Origin: Alphaproteobacteria bacterium | Lineage (GTDB): Bacteria > Pseudomonadota > Alphaproteobacteria > SHVV01 | NCBI GenBank assembly: GCA_965261735.1 | Contig: OZ253470.1 | Coordinates: 3,552,001 to 3,616,000, forward strand | Reading direction: 5' to 3' | Length of the DNA: 64,000 nucleotides | In this document: one piece after another, positions 49,043-60,286 of the stretch | Numbering within the stretch: position 1 is the stretch's first letter | How the letters are laid out: the number at the start of each line of letters is the position of its first letter | Program-made: the position numbers and the translations under genes | The notes under the pieces: generated by a model | What the model saw: only the letters and a program-made list of their open reading frames with translations | Database searches by the model: none | Told to the model about the DNA's origin: nothing

Positions 49043-51849
49043 GGTCGTGTCCCAGGACGTGGTGTAGGAGTTGTTGGAGCCTCTGGTAGCTGTGGGTAGG
49101 CGGCTTGCCGTAGCGACCGCCGAGAGTCTGGCGTAGGCAAGCCGGCTATCCACAGCGGAGGCCATCGCGGTTCCGGTTTAGGGTTGGGCTAGTGCAAACC
49201 AACCTGACCCGAAGGAGAACCACGATGACCCAGGACATGATGACCCTGCGCGCGCTTTTGGAGAAGAGCTCCGATGCCGATCTGCTTTGCGAGATGATCG
49301 GCTTCACGGCCGAGCGGCTGATGGCACTGGAGGTTGAGGGCCTGACCGGCGCCGGGCACGGCGAGCGCTCGGCGGATCGTATCACCCATCGCAACGGCTA
49401 CCGCGACCGGTCCTGGGAGACGCGGGCCGGCACGGTCGAGCTGAAGATCCCGAAGCTGAGGAAGGGAAGCTACTTCCCGGGCTTCCTGGAGCCGCGGCGG
49501 ATGGCCGAGAAGGCGCTGGCTGCGGTGATCCAGGAGGCCTACATCCAGGGGGTGTCGACCCGCTCGGTCGACGATCTGGTTCAGGCGATGGGGATGTCGG
49601 GCGCCTCCAAGAGCCAGGTCTCCAGGCTGTGCGGCGAGATCGACGATAAGGTCACCGGCTTCCTCGATCGACCGCTGGAGGGCGACTGGCCCTATCTGTG
49701 GCTCGACGCCACCTACGTGAAGGTGCGCCAGACCGGACGCATCGTCTCGGTCGCGGTGACCGTGGCTGTGGCCGTCAACGACCAAGGCCGCCGCGAGGTC
49801 CTGGGCGTGGCGATCGGCGCGTCGGAGGCCGAGACCTTCTGGACCGAGTTCCTGCGCTCGCTGGCCCGGCGCGGGCTGCGCGGCGTGAAGCTGGTGATCT
49901 CCGACGACCACAAGGGCCTGAAGGCCGCCGCGACCCGGATCCTCGGCGCCACATGGCAGCGCTGCCGCGTGCACTTCGCCCGCAACCTGCTGGCCCATGC
50001 CGGCCGCCAGGGCCGGCGCGTCGTCTCCGCCTTCGCCCAGGAGGACGCCGACAGCGCGAAGGTCCAGTGGCGCCAGGTCGCCGACCAGCTCAGGCCCAAG
50101 GTGCCCAAGCTGGCAGTTCTCATGGACGAAGCCGAGCACGACGTCCTCGCCTACATGAGCTTCCCCAGGGAGCACCGCCAGAAATTGCACTCCACAAACC
50201 CGATCGAACGTGTGTGGACGCCCCCGTTGATGCAAGCAGTTTTTGGTCGGCTCGGTGCATGCGGTCAGGTGCTGTCGTGTGTCCGGCCTCTCTATGCGGC
50301 AGATGACACGCCGCGGGCCCGTATGGAGATACGCGGATTGGGTCCAAATCGGTTACGCGAGCTTGAAAGCTCTCCGTTCGGATGCTGGTTTTCCCAACCC
50401 GGTCTCGTTGACCTTTGCCCTTACCTGTCCTCCGTCCTGCCCACATCCCCGACGGCTTCCCGCACTTCGCCGTTCTCTCAGGCGGTGGCGGGAGCCCGGT
50501 AGCTCTTCTTCTTCGTCAGTAGCACCCAGACGATGCGCGCCATCCTGTTGGCCAGCGCCACCGCGACGAGCATCCTCGGCTTGCGCGCCAGCATCCCGGC
50601 CAGCCAGGGGTCCGTCGTCACGCCGCGCCGAACCGCCCAGCGGACCACAGTCATCGCGCCTGTGATCAGCAGCCGTCTCAGATCGCGCTGGCCCATCTTC
50701 GATATCTTGCCCAGCTTCGGCTTGCCGCCGGTCGTGTGCTGGCGCGGCACGAGGCCGAGCCAAGCGGAGAAGTCGCGGCCGCGCCGGAAACTCTCCATCG
50801 GCGGTGCGAAGGCCTGGATTGCCATCGCGCTGATCGGCCCGATCCCCGGCACGCTCATCAGGCGCCTCGCCTCCTCATCCTGCCGTGCTCTCACGTGGAC
50901 CTCCCTCTCCAGGCCCGCAATCTTCGCATCGAGGCCGGCGATCTGCTCAAGCAGAAGGCCGGCCAGCTCGCGGACCGCTTCCGGCAACCTCGAAGCCGGT
51001 CCCTCAAGCGCCGAGGCCAGCCGGCCGACATGAGCCGGCCCTGTGGGGCAATGACACCGAACTCCGCCAGATGGCCGCGCAGCGCATTAATCGTCTGGGT
51101 GCGCTGGCGCACCAGAAGATCGCGCGTCCGGAACAGCATGCCCCGAGCCTGCTGTTCCTCCGTCTTCACAGCCACAAAGCGCATGGTCGGCCGCGACGAC
51201 GCCTCGCAGATCGCCTCCGCATCCGACGCGTCGTTCTTTTGCCGCTTGACGTACGCTTTGACGTAGATCGGTGGGACCAGTCGCACCGCATGGCCGAGAC
51301 TGCCGATCTCCCGGCCCCAATGGTGCGCGCCGCCGCACGCCTCCATCGCCACCGTGCAGCGTGGCTGCGCAGCCACAAAGTCCAACAGCTTCGCCCGGCT
51401 CAGCTTCTTGCGGAACGCAACCGACCCATCCGCCCGCGCACCGTGCAGCTGAAAGCTGTTCTTCGCCAGATCGATCCCGATCATGTGAACCTGTTCCATG
51501 GACGCCCCCATCCTCGCTTGGCGTTAACAACACCGCCAACCTGGCACATCGCGATGCCGTCGGGAGGGGCGTCCACCCCATCGGCTCCATGCCGAGGTCA
51601 AGCGTCGCACCAACGTCGTCGGTATCTTTCCCAACGAAGCCGCCATCACACGGCTCGTCGGCGCCATCCTTCTCGAGCAGAACGACGAGTGGGCCGTCTC
51701 AAGGAGATACATGACGCTGGAATCCATCGCTCCGCTGAGCGATGGTGTCCCCATCACGCTGCCCACCGTGGCAGCCTGAACGTCCCGGCCCTACCCGCCG
51801 GGAGCCGCGTAGAGCGCAACGCTCTTACACCACTCCGCGGGACACGATC
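49043..51849 (+). mobile_element. IS256 type B copy 4 (15-bp deletion variant) interrupted by IS1111
   Basis: Both IRs present; transposase split at NPIE|R; no TSD. Confidence 0.93.
50211..51581 (-). mobile_element. IS110-family (IS1111 group) copy 1, recombinase frameshifted
   Basis: 1 bp shorter than copy 2 (about 51040); CG core at 50209-10 and 51582-83; subterminal IRs GTGGACGCCCC. Confidence 0.93.
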
Positions 51850-55039: not shown

Positions 55040-56144
55040 CTTGCCTATCCGGTTTACACTCACACCCACTAGGGCTAGAATGGGCGCAAACCGGATATAG
55101 GGGAGCGCGCCATGGATGTTCTCGACCGCGCCGATCTCCCATTCCCGCATTCGCTACCCGAGTTCCAGCGACTTTTCCCCGATGATGCGGCCTGCGCCGC
55201 CTACCTGGAGAAAGCCCGCTGGGGAGACGGCTTTGCCTGCCCGCACTGCGGCACGGCGGGAGAGCCGTTCCACTTTGAAAACCGCCCTGGCGTCCTGCGC
55301 TGCCGCAAGTGCCGCCAGAACACCGGGCTGACGGTGGGAACAGTGATGGAGCGTAGCCACACTCCGCTGAACGTCTGGTTCTGGGCCGCTTATCTGGTCG
55401 CCAGTCAGACGCCCGGCATGTCCGCCGTGCAGTTTCAGCGGCAACTTGGTCTTTCGCGCTACGAGACGGCCTTTCAAATTCTCCACAAGCTCCGCTCGGG
55501 CATGGTGCGGCCCAACCAAGACAGGATCGGTGGACAGCCCAAGAACCATGTTGAGGTGGACGAAACCTGGGTTGGCGGGCGAACGCGTGGGGAAGGCCGT
55601 GGTGTTCACCACAAGGTTCCCGTCTCCTGTGCCATCGAGGTGCGTCATCGAAAGCCGGGCACCAAGCTCGACAACCGGAAAGACGGACGCTATGCCGGAC
55701 GCGTTCGGCTCGCCGTCGTGCTCGACCGTAGCGCCGAGTCGCTCTGTGGGTTCGTCGAGAGCACCGTCGCGCCGGGATCGCTGATCGTTACTGACGATTG
55801 GAGCGGCTATGCTGGCCTCGGTAAGCGCGGCTATGAGCACTTCGCTGTTGCCGAGTGTGGTGATCCAGAGGTTGCCGAGCAATACCTGCCGATCATCCAT
55901 CTGGTTTTCGCCAACCTGAAGACGTGGCTGATCGATATCCACCACGGCGTTAGCCACCAGCACCTACAAGCCTACCTCAACGAGTTCACCTTCCGCTTCA
56001 ACAGGCGGTTCTACCCGTTCAACGCCTTCCGCTCATTGCTCGGCATCGCGGGCGACACCTCTGCTCCAACCTATGCCGAGCTTTACTCGGGAGAGTGGCG
56101 GCACCCTACATGTAGCGGTCATGGGCGTTAACCGGATAGGCAAG
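55040..56144 (+). mobile_element. IS1595 type A, complete copy (transposase 55112-56131)
   Basis: IRs CTTGCCTATCCGGTT; flanks CAATTAAC/CAATCAAC (7 of 8 match). Confidence 0.95.
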
Positions 56145-56265: not shown

Positions 56266-56763
56266 ATGAAGAAACTCGTCATGACATTGGCGGCTCTTGG
56301 CGCGTCGGTGAGCGTTGCGCACGCCGGCCAGTACTTGCAGGCCTCCTCTTCGGTTACCCAGTGCCCGGGCAAGGCGCCCAAGCTGGTGGAGATGGACATC
56401 GTCGATGCCGCCAACGGCATCACGCTGGCGAACAACAAGGTGACCGTCGGCGAGGCCGGGCCCTATCTGATCGTCGCCGCGCCGCAAGTCGGGCGCGAGG
56501 GCGGGGGGCCCTACGGCTGCTTCGACCTGTGGCTGCGGGTCAACGGCACGGATGTCGCCAACTCCAACGTGCAGCTCTGCCAGGACGAAGGCAGCATGGC
56601 GAAGGACGTCATCATTTCGCAGGGTATCGTTCCCATGGAGGCGGGCGACGTGCTGGAAGTGATGATGTCGGCCAGCAACCCCGACGCCAATATGTGCATC
56701 GAGGCGATTCAGCCGGCCGGCGAGCCGTTGGTACCGGCGATCATTTTCTCCATGATCGAGTAA
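56266..56763 (+). CDS. Secreted protein with a probable C1q/TNF/BclA-like beta-sandwich
   Basis: Signal peptide ending AHA; VTVGEAGPYLI, WLRVNG, MEAGDVLEV pattern. Confidence 0.65.
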   Translation: MKKLVMTLAALGASVSVAHAGQYLQASSSVTQCPGKAPKLVEMDIVDAANGITLANNKVTVGEAGPYLIVAAPQVGREGGGPYGCFDLWLRVNGTDVANSNVQLCQDEGSMAKDVIISQGIVPMEAGDVLEVMMSASNPDANMCIEAIQPAGEPLVPAIIFSMIE

Positions 56764-57014
56764 GGGGCGGAGGGGCAACCGACAAACGCGCCGGAATGCG
56801 GCGCGCGCCTGTCCGCGCTGATTCGAGGCAGAGCGGCGGTCACGGCGTGTCGGAAGGATTACCGGGCCGTATCCCTTCTGTCACGCTGTGGAGGCGTCCG
56901 ACCAGCGGGTGAGGGTCCGAGTGTCGAGCCGCACGGTTTCCTGCCACAGCGGCCATTCGCTGTCTCCGCGCATCCGGGCAGCCACGGCTTGGCCGAACGT
57001 GTGTGGACGCCCCC

Positions 57015-57266
57015 GTTGATGCAAGCAGTTTTTGGTCGGCTCGGTGCATGCGGTCAGGTGCTGTCGTGTGTCCGGCCTCTCTATGCGGCAGATGACACGC
57101 CGCGGGCTCGTATGGAGATACGCGGATTGGGTCCAAATCGGTTACGCGAGCTTGAAAGCTCTCCGTTCGGATGCTGGTTTTCCCAACCCGGTCTCGTTGA
57201 CCTTTGCCCTTACCTGTCCTCCGTCCTGCCCACATCCCCGACGGCTTCCCGCACTTCGCCGTTCTC
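57015..57266 (-). ncRNA. Predicted bridge/seek RNA of the IS1111 element (second copy at 50226-50477)
   Basis: Contains CCGAACG and GUAACCG around a small hairpin (match the target) and ACACACG (matches the element end); boundaries approximate. Confidence 0.78.
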
Positions 57267-58289
57267 TCAGGCGGTGGCGGGAGCCCGGTAGCTCTTCTTC
57301 TTCGTCAGTAGCGCCCAGACGATGCGCGCCATCCTGTTGGCCAGCGCCACCGCGACGAGCATCCTCGGCTTGCGCGCCAGCATCCCGGCCAGCCAGGGGT
57401 CCGTCGTCACGCCGCGCCGAACCGCCCAGCGGACCACAGTCATCGCGCCTGTGATCAGCAGCCGTCTCAGATCGCGCTGGCCCATCTTCGATATCTTGCC
57501 CAGCTTCGGCTTGCCGCCGGTCGTGTGCTGGCGCGGCACGAGGCCGAGCCAAGCGGAGAAGTCGCGGCCGCGCCGGAAACTCTCCATCGGCGGTGCGAAG
57601 GCCTGGATTGCCATCGCGCTGATCGGCCCGATCCCCGGCACGCTCATCAGGCGCCTCGCCTCCTCATCCTGCCGTGCTCTCACGTGGACCTCCCTCTCCA
57701 GGCCCGCAATCTTCGCATCGAGGCCGGCGATCTGCTCAAGCAGAAGGCCGGCCAGCTCGCGGACCGCTTCCGGCAACATCGAAGCCGGTCCCCCAAGCGC
57801 CGAGGCCAGCCGGCCGACATGAGCCGGCCCCTGCGGGGCAATGACACCGAACTCCGCCAGATGGCCGCGCAGCGCATTAATCGTCTGGGTGCGCTGGCGC
57901 ACCAGAAGATCGCGCGTCCGGAACAGCATGCCCCGAGCCTGCTGTTCCTCCGTCTTCACAGCCACAAAGCGCATGGTCGGCCGCGACGACGTCTCGCAGA
58001 TCGCCTCCGCATCCGACGCGTCGTTCTTTTGCCGCTTGACGTACGCTTTGACGTAGATCGGTGGGACCAGTCGCACCGCATGGCCGAGACTGCCGATCTC
58101 CCGGCCCCAATGGTGCGCGCCGCCGCACGCCTCCATCGCCACCGTGCAGCGTGGCTGCGCAGCCACAAAGTCCAACAGCTTCGCCCGGCTCAGCTTCTTG
58201 CGGAACGCAACCAACCCATCCGCCCGCGCACCGTGCAGCTGAAAGCTGTTCTTCGCCAGATCGATCCCGATCATGTGAACCTGTTCCAT
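57267..58289 (-). CDS. IS110-family DEDD recombinase
   Basis: GIDLAK, MEAC, KNDASDA, PGIGP, LGLVPRQHTTGGK, VALANRMAR. Confidence 0.95.
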   Translation of the reverse strand: MEQVHMIGIDLAKNSFQLHGARADGLVAFRKKLSRAKLLDFVAAQPRCTVAMEACGGAHHWGREIGSLGHAVRLVPPIYVKAYVKRQKNDASDAEAICETSSRPTMRFVAVKTEEQQARGMLFRTRDLLVRQRTQTINALRGHLAEFGVIAPQGPAHVGRLASALGGPASMLPEAVRELAGLLLEQIAGLDAKIAGLEREVHVRARQDEEARRLMSVPGIGPISAMAIQAFAPPMESFRRGRDFSAWLGLVPRQHTTGGKPKLGKISKMGQRDLRRLLITGAMTVVRWAVRRGVTTDPWLAGMLARKPRMLVAVALANRMARIVWALLTKKKSYRAPATA

Positions 58290-58390
58290 GGACGCCCCCT
58301 TCCTCGCTTGGCGTTAACAACACCGCCAACCTGGCACATCGCGATGCCGTCGGGAGGGGCGTCCACCCCATCGGTTACCGGCCGGACGGC

Positions 58391-60286
58391 GTGACCGCCG
58401 CCGGTCTCGGCCTCGGTGTCGGGGCGGCGCTGATCGCCTACATGGCGAGCGACCGCAAGGACGCCGGCGTCTGGCTGCGCTTCGGCCCTTACGGCGCGGG
58501 GCTGGCGGTGTGTGCGGCCTCGCTCTGGACCGGCATCGTCCGTCCCCTGCAAGGCGCGGGCTCCTTCGGCGCCGCGATGGCCTGGCTCAAGGATCTCGAC
58601 GGCCTGGGGCTGGTGCTGCTCGCCGTGCCGCCGCCGGCCCTCATGCTGCTGACCGTGCTCTGGTTCGAGGTGGCGGTCGGCAGCGTCAAGTACCTCGACA
58701 GCGGGCGCCGGCGGCGGCGGGCCGAGTCCGATCTTCACGGCCACGCGCGGCTGCTCGGCCGCCGCTTCCTGCGCAGGCTCGTGCGGCGCAAGGGGATTCT
58801 GCTCGGCCAGTGGGGCGCGGGCCGCAACGCGAGATTGATCGGCTGGTCCCTCGAAGGCTCCGCCATCACCGTCGCCCCGCCGCGCGCGGGCAAGGGCGCA
58901 ACCATCGCGCTCAACCTTCTCTCGCCGGACGACCGGGGTTTCCAGGGCTCGACCGTCACCATAGACCCGCGCGGCGAGCTTTGGTGCATTGCCGCCCGGC
59001 GCCGCCGCCAGATGGGGCGCAACGTCCTGCTGCTCGACCCCTTCGGCGTGGTGGGCGGCCACAAGGAAGCGTTCCCGAAATGCCATCTGCCGGACGTTAC
59101 GAGTGCGACCTACAACCCGCTGGAGTTCATACGGAAGGATGAGAACCTTGCCGTGCGCGATATCAACGTGCTGCTCGACGCCTTGCTCACCCCGCCGCGC
59201 CCGGACGCGCACCAGAACAGCCGGCACTTCTACGAGTCCGCCCGCGCCATCATCGCCGGCTACATGGCCTGGGTGCGCTTCAAGGCCGAGCCGCCCCAGC
59301 GCAGCCTGGCCACCCTCTACCGGATGCTGTCGATGACGCCGGAGGAATGGGAGGCATTCGCGGGGCGGGTCCTGGACACGGACCGCTTCACCGGCGGGCT
59401 CACCCATATCGCGGTCGAGCGCCAGGCCCAGGTCGGCCGGGAGGAAGGCGGCTCCACCTTCACCACGGTCGCCAACCAGCTCGCCTTCCTCAACTACCCC
59501 GAGCTGTTGGCTCACACCTCGGCCTCCAGCTTCGATCCCTTGGATCTGGCCAAGGGCGATACCGACCTCTTCGTGGTCGCACCGGAAGAGACCATTGAGC
59601 ACGTCAAGGGCTGGCTCCGCCTCTGGGTCGCCATCCCCAACGCCGTCGCCGGCATCCAGCCGCTGGAGCGCGACCTACTCATCGTCATCGACGAGATGCC
59701 CCGCCTCGGCTACCTCAAGCCGGTCATGGACGGCTACACCATGGCCGCCGGCAAGGGCGTGCATTTCTGGTGCTTCGCGCAGTCGATTTCCGCCCTCGAT
59801 TCGAGCTGGGGCAAGGAGCACCGCAAGACGCTGCTGCACCTCGCCGAGGTCGTCCAGGTCCTGGGTTTCCCGCGCACCGACGCCGAGGGTGCCGAGGAGC
59901 TCTCCAAGGCCATCGGCACCGCCACCTTCGAGGGTCGCACCGAGAGCCGCTCGGGCACCATCGCCGAGAGCCGCATCGTCACCGCCAATACCCAGTGGCA
60001 GGCGGGAGACTCCAGATCCCTGGTCCGCGAGCGTCTGGTCACCCCGGACGAGTTGATGACGCTGGGGCCCGACCGCCAATACGTGATCGCGGCCGCCAAG
60101 GACATGCCGCGCGACGCGCTCCATCTCCATCACGCCCACTACTGGCGCCGCCGCGACGCGGAACATCTCGCCGATCCCAACCCGTTCGTGCTGCGCAAGC
60201 AACGCGCGGCAGGGGCTGGGTCTGGTAGTGCGGAGAGGCGGACGGGGCCGGGTTCGATACTGACAGCCGGAAGGAGGGTGACATGA
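58391..60286 (+). CDS. Type IV coupling protein VirD4/TraG
   Basis: N-terminal TMs, HGHAR, APPRAGKG Walker A, IDPRGEL, IVIDEM Walker B, RLVTPDEL; true start may be displaced by IS1111. Confidence 0.85.
   Translation: MTAAGLGLGVGAALIAYMASDRKDAGVWLRFGPYGAGLAVCAASLWTGIVRPLQGAGSFGAAMAWLKDLDGLGLVLLAVPPPALMLLTVLWFEVAVGSVKYLDSGRRRRRAESDLHGHARLLGRRFLRRLVRRKGILLGQWGAGRNARLIGWSLEGSAITVAPPRAGKGATIALNLLSPDDRGFQGSTVTIDPRGELWCIAARRRRQMGRNVLLLDPFGVVGGHKEAFPKCHLPDVTSATYNPLEFIRKDENLAVRDINVLLDALLTPPRPDAHQNSRHFYESARAIIAGYMAWVRFKAEPPQRSLATLYRMLSMTPEEWEAFAGRVLDTDRFTGGLTHIAVERQAQVGREEGGSTFTTVANQLAFLNYPELLAHTSASSFDPLDLAKGDTDLFVVAPEETIEHVKGWLRLWVAIPNAVAGIQPLERDLLIVIDEMPRLGYLKPVMDGYTMAAGKGVHFWCFAQSISALDSSWGKEHRKTLLHLAEVVQVLGFPRTDAEGAEELSKAIGTATFEGRTESRSGTIAESRIVTANTQWQAGDSRSLVRERLVTPDELMTLGPDRQYVIAAAKDMPRDALHLHHAHYWRRRDAEHLADPNPFVLRKQRAAGAGSGSAERRTGPGSILTAGRRVT

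Follow-up and report, generated by a model that had tools for sequence, protein, structure and literature searches.

Guide-like loops of a conserved RNA block follow the insertion sites of an IS1111-group insertion sequence in an alphaproteobacterial genome

RESULTS

An IS1111-group element with a probable structured RNA gene in its right end

A 64,000-nt stretch of an alphaproteobacterial genome (contig OZ253470.1, positions 3,552,001 to 3,616,000; hereafter the window, with positions counted from its first nucleotide) contains an insertion sequence at 56990-58380. The element is very likely a structurally intact member of the IS1111 group of the IS110 family, with a structured RNA gene of ~150 nt in its right end. 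An initial annotation made from the window's letters had proposed a recombinase guided by a non-coding RNA whose loops match the element's own insertion site and ends. Here, the predicted guides were compared with the flanks and ends of other copies in the host genome and of relatives in other genomes. Covariation of the guides with flanks and ends turns the match in a single copy into a family-wide rule.

The sole long reading frame within 56990-58380 is the recombinase gene (58289..57267, minus strand). Its product matches PF01548 (DEDD_Tnp_IS110; 8.7e-15), PF02371 (Transposase_20; 4e-22), and the NCBIfam model NF033542, "IS110 family RNA-guided transposase" (316.9 bits against a cut-off of 140), which bears out the family assignment of the initial annotation. 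PDB sequence matches were ISCro4 (9t56, 6.9e-13) and IS621 (8wt6, 6.8e-10). IS1111 transposases are 330-350 amino acids long and have a C-terminal GL-P----S/T-G motif (PMC11187229); GLVPRQHTTG in the translation corresponds to this motif.

The body of the insertion sequence spans 57000-58371 (1372 nt excluding the flanking core dinucleotides), with the recombinase on the minus strand, so that the right end (RE) lies at the lower coordinates and the left end (LE) at the higher. Body ends were set from 14 genomic copies and the empty site of one sister copy. Read on the plus strand, the left junction is GGCCGAA-CG followed by the body starting TGTGTGGACG (from 57000), and the right junction is the body ending GTCCACCCCAT (58371), CG, and then GTTACCGG. 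Inverted repeats of 11 bp begin 3 and 5 nt inside the body ends; the IS1111 group has sub-terminal inverted repeats of 7-17 bp (PMC11208160). Non-coding sequence amounts to 267 nt downstream of the gene (57000-57266) versus 82 nt upstream (58290-58371). The 11-bp sub-terminal repeats and the long right end make this the IS1111 layout (PMC11187229, PMC11208160), as initially proposed. The parts of the element outside the RNA are as follows:

56998-56999, no strand: core dinucleotide CG at the RE junction (CG at both junctions in all 13 distinct sites)
57003-57013: RE arm of the sub-terminal inverted repeat, 11 nt, 100% complementary to 58356-58366 (repeat search)
57267-58289, minus strand: recombinase/transposase gene, 340 amino acids, with DEDD (RuvC-like) N-terminal and Transposase_20 C-terminal domains
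58356-58366: LE arm of the sub-terminal inverted repeat, GTGGACGCCCC on the recombinase strand, also kept in relatives
58372-58373, no strand: core dinucleotide CG at the LE junction (from sequence, empty site, and site census)

An empty site was available for comparison. Two uninterrupted IS256-like copies read gatcgaa-CG-gctccatg, with one CG (genome 3624207-3624267 and 3625041-3625101), whereas the occupied IS256-like copy (element body at genome 3602211-3603581) has CG on both sides. The single CG of the empty site versus the two of the occupied one fixes the ends and indicates that there is no target duplication beyond the core. Insertion is precise and orientation-specific, and one CG is left on each side.

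Two further complementarities were seen within the element. A third copy of the sub-terminal repeat motif (58289-58298, GGGGCGUCCAUGG) overlaps the start codon and is perfectly complementary to the left-end repeat at 58356-58365, 57 nt upstream; a hairpin between the two could mask the ribosome site and start codon in a read-through transcript. A 15-nt, 87% complementary pair joins 57237-57251, just past the stop codon, with 58340-58354 in the 5' untranslated region (CCGACGGC/GCCGUCGG), and its core is also present in the sister element alignment.

Copies in the host genome

The host genome (one contig, 5.03 Mb, 98% complete) carries 14 full-length copies at an identity of at least 99.3%, 13 of which have an intact 340-amino-acid frame. 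A sister element is present in five copies at 80.9-81.9% identity, and there are also fragments. Two 5'-truncated copies (genome 3363440-3364077 and 4279542-4279948) retain the whole RNA gene and the right end, without a complete recombinase gene, and could provide RNA in trans. One other copy lies within the window:

50211-51581, minus strand: second copy of the element, with a 1-nt deletion and a stop after 202 codons, nested in an IS256-like element

This nested pair is duplicated in inverted orientation just beyond the window end (genome 3616735-3619542).

Target and donor arms of the candidate guide RNA

Written in element orientation, the insertion site is CGGTAAC-CG-TTCGGCC. The recombinase strand at 57171-57139 reads CCGAACGG-A-GAGC-UUUCAA-GCUC-GC-GUAACCG and contains both target arms. 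GUAAC-CG has the top-strand sequence of the left half with the core and hence would pair with the bottom strand, and CCGAA-CG-G complements the top strand of the core and right half (C-CG-TTCGG). The two arms overlap on the CG core, and the top-strand match lies 5' of the bottom-strand match, which is the IS1111-type order (PMC11187229). The target-loop string and its arms CCGAACG and GUAACCG are present exactly where the initial annotation had placed them, as is every other string that it quoted, including ACACACG and CCAU in the donor loop. The four arms are as follows:

57163-57170, minus strand: target loop 5' arm CCGAACGG, complementary to top strand C-CG-TTCGG (core plus right half, element orientation)
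57139-57145, minus strand: target loop 3' arm GUAACCG (from sequence, site census, and covariation)
57112-57117, minus strand: donor loop 5' arm CUCCAU, complementary to LE ATGGAG, or to ATGGGG with one G-U pair
57065-57071, minus strand: donor loop 3' arm ACACACG, identical to the last 5 nt of RE plus core and complementary to the bottom strand

Matches of 7-8 nt can arise by chance in a GC-rich genome, and the agreement between guides and flanks might on that ground be coincidental. However, a search of the 5.03-Mb genome for CCGAACG followed after 5-40 nt by GTAACCG on the same strand gave 16 occurrences, all of them in element copies (the 14 full-length and the two truncated ones). The chance expectation for this two-arm arrangement, calculated from 7-mer frequencies in the same genome, is ~4e-5 per 277-nt stretch.

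Covariation of guides with flanks and ends

Relatives were collected by a scan of one genome per species, which yielded 80 loci with proteins 66-98% identical to the window recombinase. Their metagenome-assembled genomes belong to environmental Alphaproteobacteria, to Longimicrobiales and Binatia, and to other groups. Together with 19 elements of the host genome, this gave 99 elements, with ends set by pattern in 89. The family test set comprised 82 elements, reduced to 70 distinct loop-site combinations and 40 distinct target loops.

Across the 40 loops, the agreement of guides with their own flanks is 6.51/7 positions (left) and 5.86/7 (right); cross-pairing lowers it to 4.15 and 4.05. The summed guide-flank match is 12.37 of 14 versus 8.37 in permuted pairings (sd 0.22), and none of 2000 permutations was as high. 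Between the sister element (81% identical, TG core) and the window element, loop arms and insertion sites have changed in exactly the same way: one variant has arms UGGUACA(C)/AAAAAUG at the site GCAAAAA-TG-TACCA, and a second has UGGGUCA(A)/AAAAUUG at CCAAAAT-TG-ACCCC. One relative (L033) differs in a single guide base (GUAAGCG) and is inserted at GTAAG-CG. Nine further GTAAG-CG sites were identified (relatives L034, L035, L036, L038, L042, L043, and L044, and two degraded left ends of the host genome at 4361875 and 4401747).

The donor loop 3' arm, defined as the 7 nt after GGCCGG, behaves in the same manner toward the element's own right end. It equals the last 5 nt of RE plus core at 7/7 positions in 28 of 31 distinct combinations and at 6/7 in the remaining three. 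The arm follows nine RE variants (ACACA, ACAGA, ATAGA, ACATA, ATGTA, ATATA, ATGCA, ATACA, and ATGGA) and covers both CG and TG cores; its mean match is 6.75 versus 5.02 permuted (0/5000 permutations as high). The 5' arm is different. CCAU (recombinase strand 57115-57112) had been called a weaker match to the left end, and it is indeed weak: (C)UCCAU is near-constant and does not follow LE, which varies (ATGGGG, ATGGAG, ATGGGA, ATGGAA, ATGGTG, AGGGAG, and ATAGGG). The arm census and the target-arm and donor-arm permutations effectively refute coincidence as an explanation for the guide-flank matches, and we assign it a negligible probability.

Some relatives have unusual junctions. In L102, the right end adjoins CGTATCTCCATA, which is the donor-arm region of another copy, indicating that one element was inserted in the RNA gene of another. 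L043, L044, and L102 have a CG core on the left side and CA on the right. Full-length relatives with 60-80% nucleotide identity also occur on 126 plasmid records (Rhizobium, Sinorhizobium, Microvirga, Methylocystis, and others), where they are annotated simply as IS110 family transposase.

Insertion sites and asymmetric use of the target halves

The 14 genomic copies represent 13 distinct flank pairs, from which a site logo was built as the initial annotation had suggested. All 13 have a CG core. GTAAC is matched at left positions -5 to -1 in 11, 5, 13, 11, and 13 sites, and TTCGG at right positions +1 to +5 in 5, 11, 6, 9, and 8; AAC-CG is found on the LE side in 11. The predicted target CCGAACGGTTAC stands as the guide-encoded optimum, but a full match on both halves (5/5 and 5/5) occurs once among the 13, in the window copy. 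A target census found no unoccupied copies of the 12-mer or 10-mer and 32 of the 9-mer AACCGTTCG. This number is about what chance would give over 10 million positions, so the absence of a free perfect site is unremarkable.

In five sites, the right flank matches at chance level (3634566, 1278686, 3689040, 1544434, and 4466640), and at two sites (1547527 and 374876) the right match is shifted by one base (CG-G-TTCG). The five chance-level flanks are the basis for a tentative reading, which we consider possible yet rather doubtful, that this IS1111 element may insert by "half-match," with the bottom-strand arm and core ((G/T)AAC-CG) near-obligatory and the right half dispensable. Four sites have the opposite weighting, with a right half of 4-5/5 and a left half of only 3-4/5 (633634, 656352, 3616994/3602201, and 2903537), and suggest a trade-off in total pairing. 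Three of the five unmatched right flanks start with AT(G) (ATGGCC, ATAAGC, and ATGTGA at 3634566, 1544434, and 4466640) and resemble LE ATGGGG, which hints that the donor-side arm can replace the target-side arm. Half-match recombination has been reported for IS621 in vitro (bioRxiv 10.64898/2026.08.31.748434), and this element, if the reading is true, would be its natural IS1111 counterpart.

Secondary structure and expression data

The arms lie in a block that is conserved in 40 distinct sequences. Bounded by the candidate helix P0, the block falls inside the 145-170 nt reported for long seekRNAs (PMC11187229). RNAalifold on the 40 sequences gave five helices (P1, P2, P3, P5, and P6):

57052-57202, minus strand: conserved RNA block of ~151 nt, candidate long seekRNA/bridge RNA
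57202-57198 (GGUCA) with 57056-57052 (UGACC), minus strand: candidate outer helix P0, 94.5% paired, almost invariant
57182-57189 (GGGUUGGG) with 57124-57131 (CCCAAUCC), minus strand: stem P1, 8 pairs, 99.4% paired, 5 changed on both sides
57174-57177 (CCAG) with 57133-57136 (UUGG), minus strand: stem P2, within P1 (consensus fold)
57148-57161, minus strand: apical hairpin P3, GAGC UUUCAA GCUC (RNAalifold), 2 of 4 pairs with compensatory changes
57074-57108, minus strand: donor-side stem-loop, with P5 (57108-57105 with 57077-57074) enclosing P6 (57103-57099 with 57089-57085)

P3 sits between the two target arms, which occupy the internal loop between P2 and P3, and the donor arms flank P5. Counts on the alignment gave pairing in 98.1% of 1000 cells and compensatory changes in 8 of 25 pairs. 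No shuffle out of 500 paired as well, and slid-register controls were 22-47% paired. The guides thus lie in loops of a fold kept by compensatory changes, which points to selection on RNA structure, not DNA sequence. Two candidates were set aside: a GUAU/AUAC hairpin over the CCAU arm, present in the minimum free energy (MFE) fold and without conservation in relatives, and a spurious Rfam match to IRES_mnt, whose 19.8 bits fall far below the gathering score of 100.

Contigs over the element, including its non-coding end (e.g., 57052-57339, 57052-57184, 57186-57307, and 57164-57270), were present in four metatranscriptome libraries of two studies. These contigs document presence only. Depth figures are per contig and were not used for ranking the non-coding end against the gene. 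Some contigs bridge to the flanks of another genomic copy, which places this organism or a very close one in the sample. Contigs of libraries X1 and X2, two runs of one study, stop at 57052, the edge of P0, a weak hint. Two terminator-like sites were found in the element, no more than in shuffles.

Several observations weigh against an RNA-guided element of this kind. In addition to the five chance-level right flanks, the 5' donor arm showed no covariation with LE variants, and its core pairing is inconsistent. Single-sequence folding of a 166-nt piece was not clearly better than shuffles (z -0.93); the MFE fold recovered P1, P2, and P3 with the target arms paired together, and the alignment-based fold was preferred. 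Neither inspection by eye nor an all-against-all column scan, which yielded an uninformative mass of conserved-column pairs, revealed a convincing closing stem for the donor region beyond the nearly invariant P0, and an Rfam search of 56500-58900 at E up to 1 found no fitting family. Seventeen of the 99 elements were dropped (10 with no end pair, three with unclear ends, and four in which the anchor was not found) and could hide exceptions. Transcription, strand, and ends cannot be proved from contigs, and libraries of this type may contain DNA. No circle-junction joint was found in contigs of the four libraries, which says nothing either way since contigs drop rare forms. A sigma-70 scan of the linear element gave no promoter-like sites against 0.1 expected, an uninformative result for a GC-rich alphaproteobacterium. 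Lastly, the window copy alone carries a G>A change at 57108 by which the G-C pair at the base of P5 becomes A-C (1 of 40 sequences).

Part of this would also fit a target chosen by protein or by DNA-DNA contacts of the non-coding end, with the guide-like stretches unused as RNA. No RNA molecule was seen directly in this analysis, sub-terminal repeats of this length suggest that a protein recognizes the ends, and there is hardly any covariation in the 5' donor arm. Such a mode would nevertheless leave unexplained why the guides lie in loops maintained by compensatory changes, and in ISEc11, ISPa11, ISKpn4, and ISPst6 the RNA co-purifies with the transposase, is essential, and is reprogrammable (PMC11187229). 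We regard targeting without RNA as very improbable and retain the RNA-guided reading.

Status of the window copy

The initial annotation held that excision of the element restores its target. Arithmetic on the flanks does give GGCCGAA-CG-GTTACCGGCC, but it is doubtful that the two flanks were ever neighbors, and the window copy may sit at a later rearrangement. Contigs of libraries X5 and X6 extend the left flank across a single CG to GTTA(T/C)(T/C)CCAAG, which is not the window's right flank; this continuation is itself a guide-matching empty site and is absent from the host genome at up to two mismatches. The left flank (window 56900-56999) also has high contig depth in these two libraries. 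On the other side, a TraG/VirD4-like coupling protein frame (58373-60283, plus strand; E 3.4e-29, below family cut-offs) starts at the element junction. It is without 26 N-terminal codons present in a 79%-identical homolog of another genome (G001, locus L112), and the similarity to that homolog ends within 3 nt of the junction. These sequences seem to place the element at the breakpoint of a conjugation gene that has been truncated. A search for the TraG-like flank in 40 relatives gave usable homologs in two genomes (G001 at 79% and G002 at 73%), neither with the window's left flank.

The kind of element could accordingly be right while the window copy itself is non-autonomous, that is, located at a rearrangement breakpoint, with a weakened RNA stem, and dependent on the RNA and protein of other copies. 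Thirty-nine of 40 aligned sequences keep the G-C pair that its private substitution at 57108 breaks (the plus strand has C here in RNA-library contigs), and five private or minority substitutions separate it from the consensus of copies. The different continuation of its left flank and the shortened TraG/VirD4-like frame point the same way. However, the 340-amino-acid frame is intact, neither the ends, the cores, nor any guide arm has changed, and a stem of 4 bp may tolerate a single A-C. The guides match both flanks perfectly, as direct insertion predicts, and contigs with another right neighbor may stem from a related strain with a different gene order. On balance, we consider a non-autonomous window copy unlikely and favor a structurally intact element.

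The surroundings are rich in repeated mobile elements (genome 3.60-3.64 Mb). An IS1595-family transposase gene (NF033547, 5.9e-57) is located at window 55112-56131 on the plus strand.

Proposed mechanism

A candidate promoter would be complete only in a circular form of the element, in which RE and LE are joined:

57019-57024, minus strand: TTGCAT, candidate -35, giving TTGCAT-N17-CACGAT in the circle junction

CACGAT would consist of RE CA, core CG, and LE AT. TTGNNN occurs at that place in 34 of 37 unique end combinations, with a spacer of 16-18 nt in 33 and an NA(C/T)GAT junction hexamer in 36, and a junction promoter has been stated for the family (PMC11187229).

The steps proposed here draw on experiments with the relatives ISEc11, ISPa11, ISKpn4, and IS621. 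The element would excise as a circle joining RE-CG-LE (junction GTCCACACA-CG-ATGGGGTGG), and the junction would create a promoter for the recombinase gene and the RNA behind it, so that one transcript would carry first the gene and then the RNA. The RNA would bind the recombinase and bridge the circle junction, held via ACACA-CG and CUCCAU, to a matching target, held via GUAAC-CG and CCGAA-CG. Strand exchange at the CG core would then insert the element. RNA-protein binding, transcription, and reprogrammability are thus predicted for this element by analogy with the experimentally studied relatives.

DISCUSSION

RNA-guided recombinases of the IS110/IS1111 type are compact and programmable, consisting of one ~340-amino-acid protein and one short RNA. 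The elements compared here form a natural series of 40 target loops and nine RE variants, each matched by the donor guide, on a protein scaffold of 66-98% identity. This series can help define the guide code of the IS1111 type with its reversed strand order and the mismatch tolerance of the right target half, and it can help contrast a strongly RNA-read right end with a weakly RNA-read left end. Three features are of some interest: the two target halves are used unequally, the left-end arm hardly varies, and the series is rich in guide variants. The element also accounts for an active expansion in the host genome (14 copies, 13 intact frames), with other mobile elements interrupted by it and a conjugation gene next to it.

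Comparison with known systems

RNA-guided recognition of target and donor by IS110/IS1111 elements was published in 2024 (PMC11187229, PMC11208160), and bridge RNAs were predicted in the RE of 93% of the IS1111 elements in ISfinder (PMC11208160). The architecture of this locus matches the published IS1111 seekRNA/bridge RNA and adds no new principle.

The closest described systems are ISEc11, ISPa11, ISKpn4, and ISPst6 (PMC11187229). Features shared with them are a transposase of ~340 amino acids with a DEDD domain, PF02371, and the GL-P----(S/T)G motif; sub-terminal inverted repeats and a long non-coding stretch after the gene; guide matches that overlap in the target, with the top-strand match placed 5' of the bottom-strand one; and natural retargeting among close relatives. 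The window element differs in sequence, host, and target (GTAAC-CG-TTCGG). A donor-matching arm, ACACA-CG, is evident in its ~150-nt block, whereas the passages of PMC11187229 drawn on here describe target matches only. According to the same source, an RNA of 70-100 nt suffices for seekRNA function.

Like IS621 (PMC11208160), the element has a single DEDD recombinase (PDB 8wt6 match, 6.8e-10). In IS621, the RNA lies in the left end upstream of the gene, whereas here the RNA is downstream and the arm order is reversed in both regions; the left-end arm is also short and constant here, in contrast to IS621. The sub-terminal repeat is 11 bp, compared to 2-3 bp in the IS110 group as given there. 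ISCro4 (PDB 9t56) is the best sequence match with a solved structure (E 6.9e-13), with both domains aligned, including the IGID and KxDxxDA catalytic stretches; the match is distant, and the likeness is one of protein sequence only.

ISPpu9 of Pseudomonas putida is likened by description only (PMC12288879). It too belongs to the IS110 family, has a small-RNA gene behind the transposase gene, and is accompanied in the genome by additional solo copies of the RNA; the two 5'-truncated copies with a whole RNA gene are the counterpart here. Unlike the window element, with its GTAAC-CG-TTCGG sites, ISPpu9 targets REP sequences (PMC12288879).

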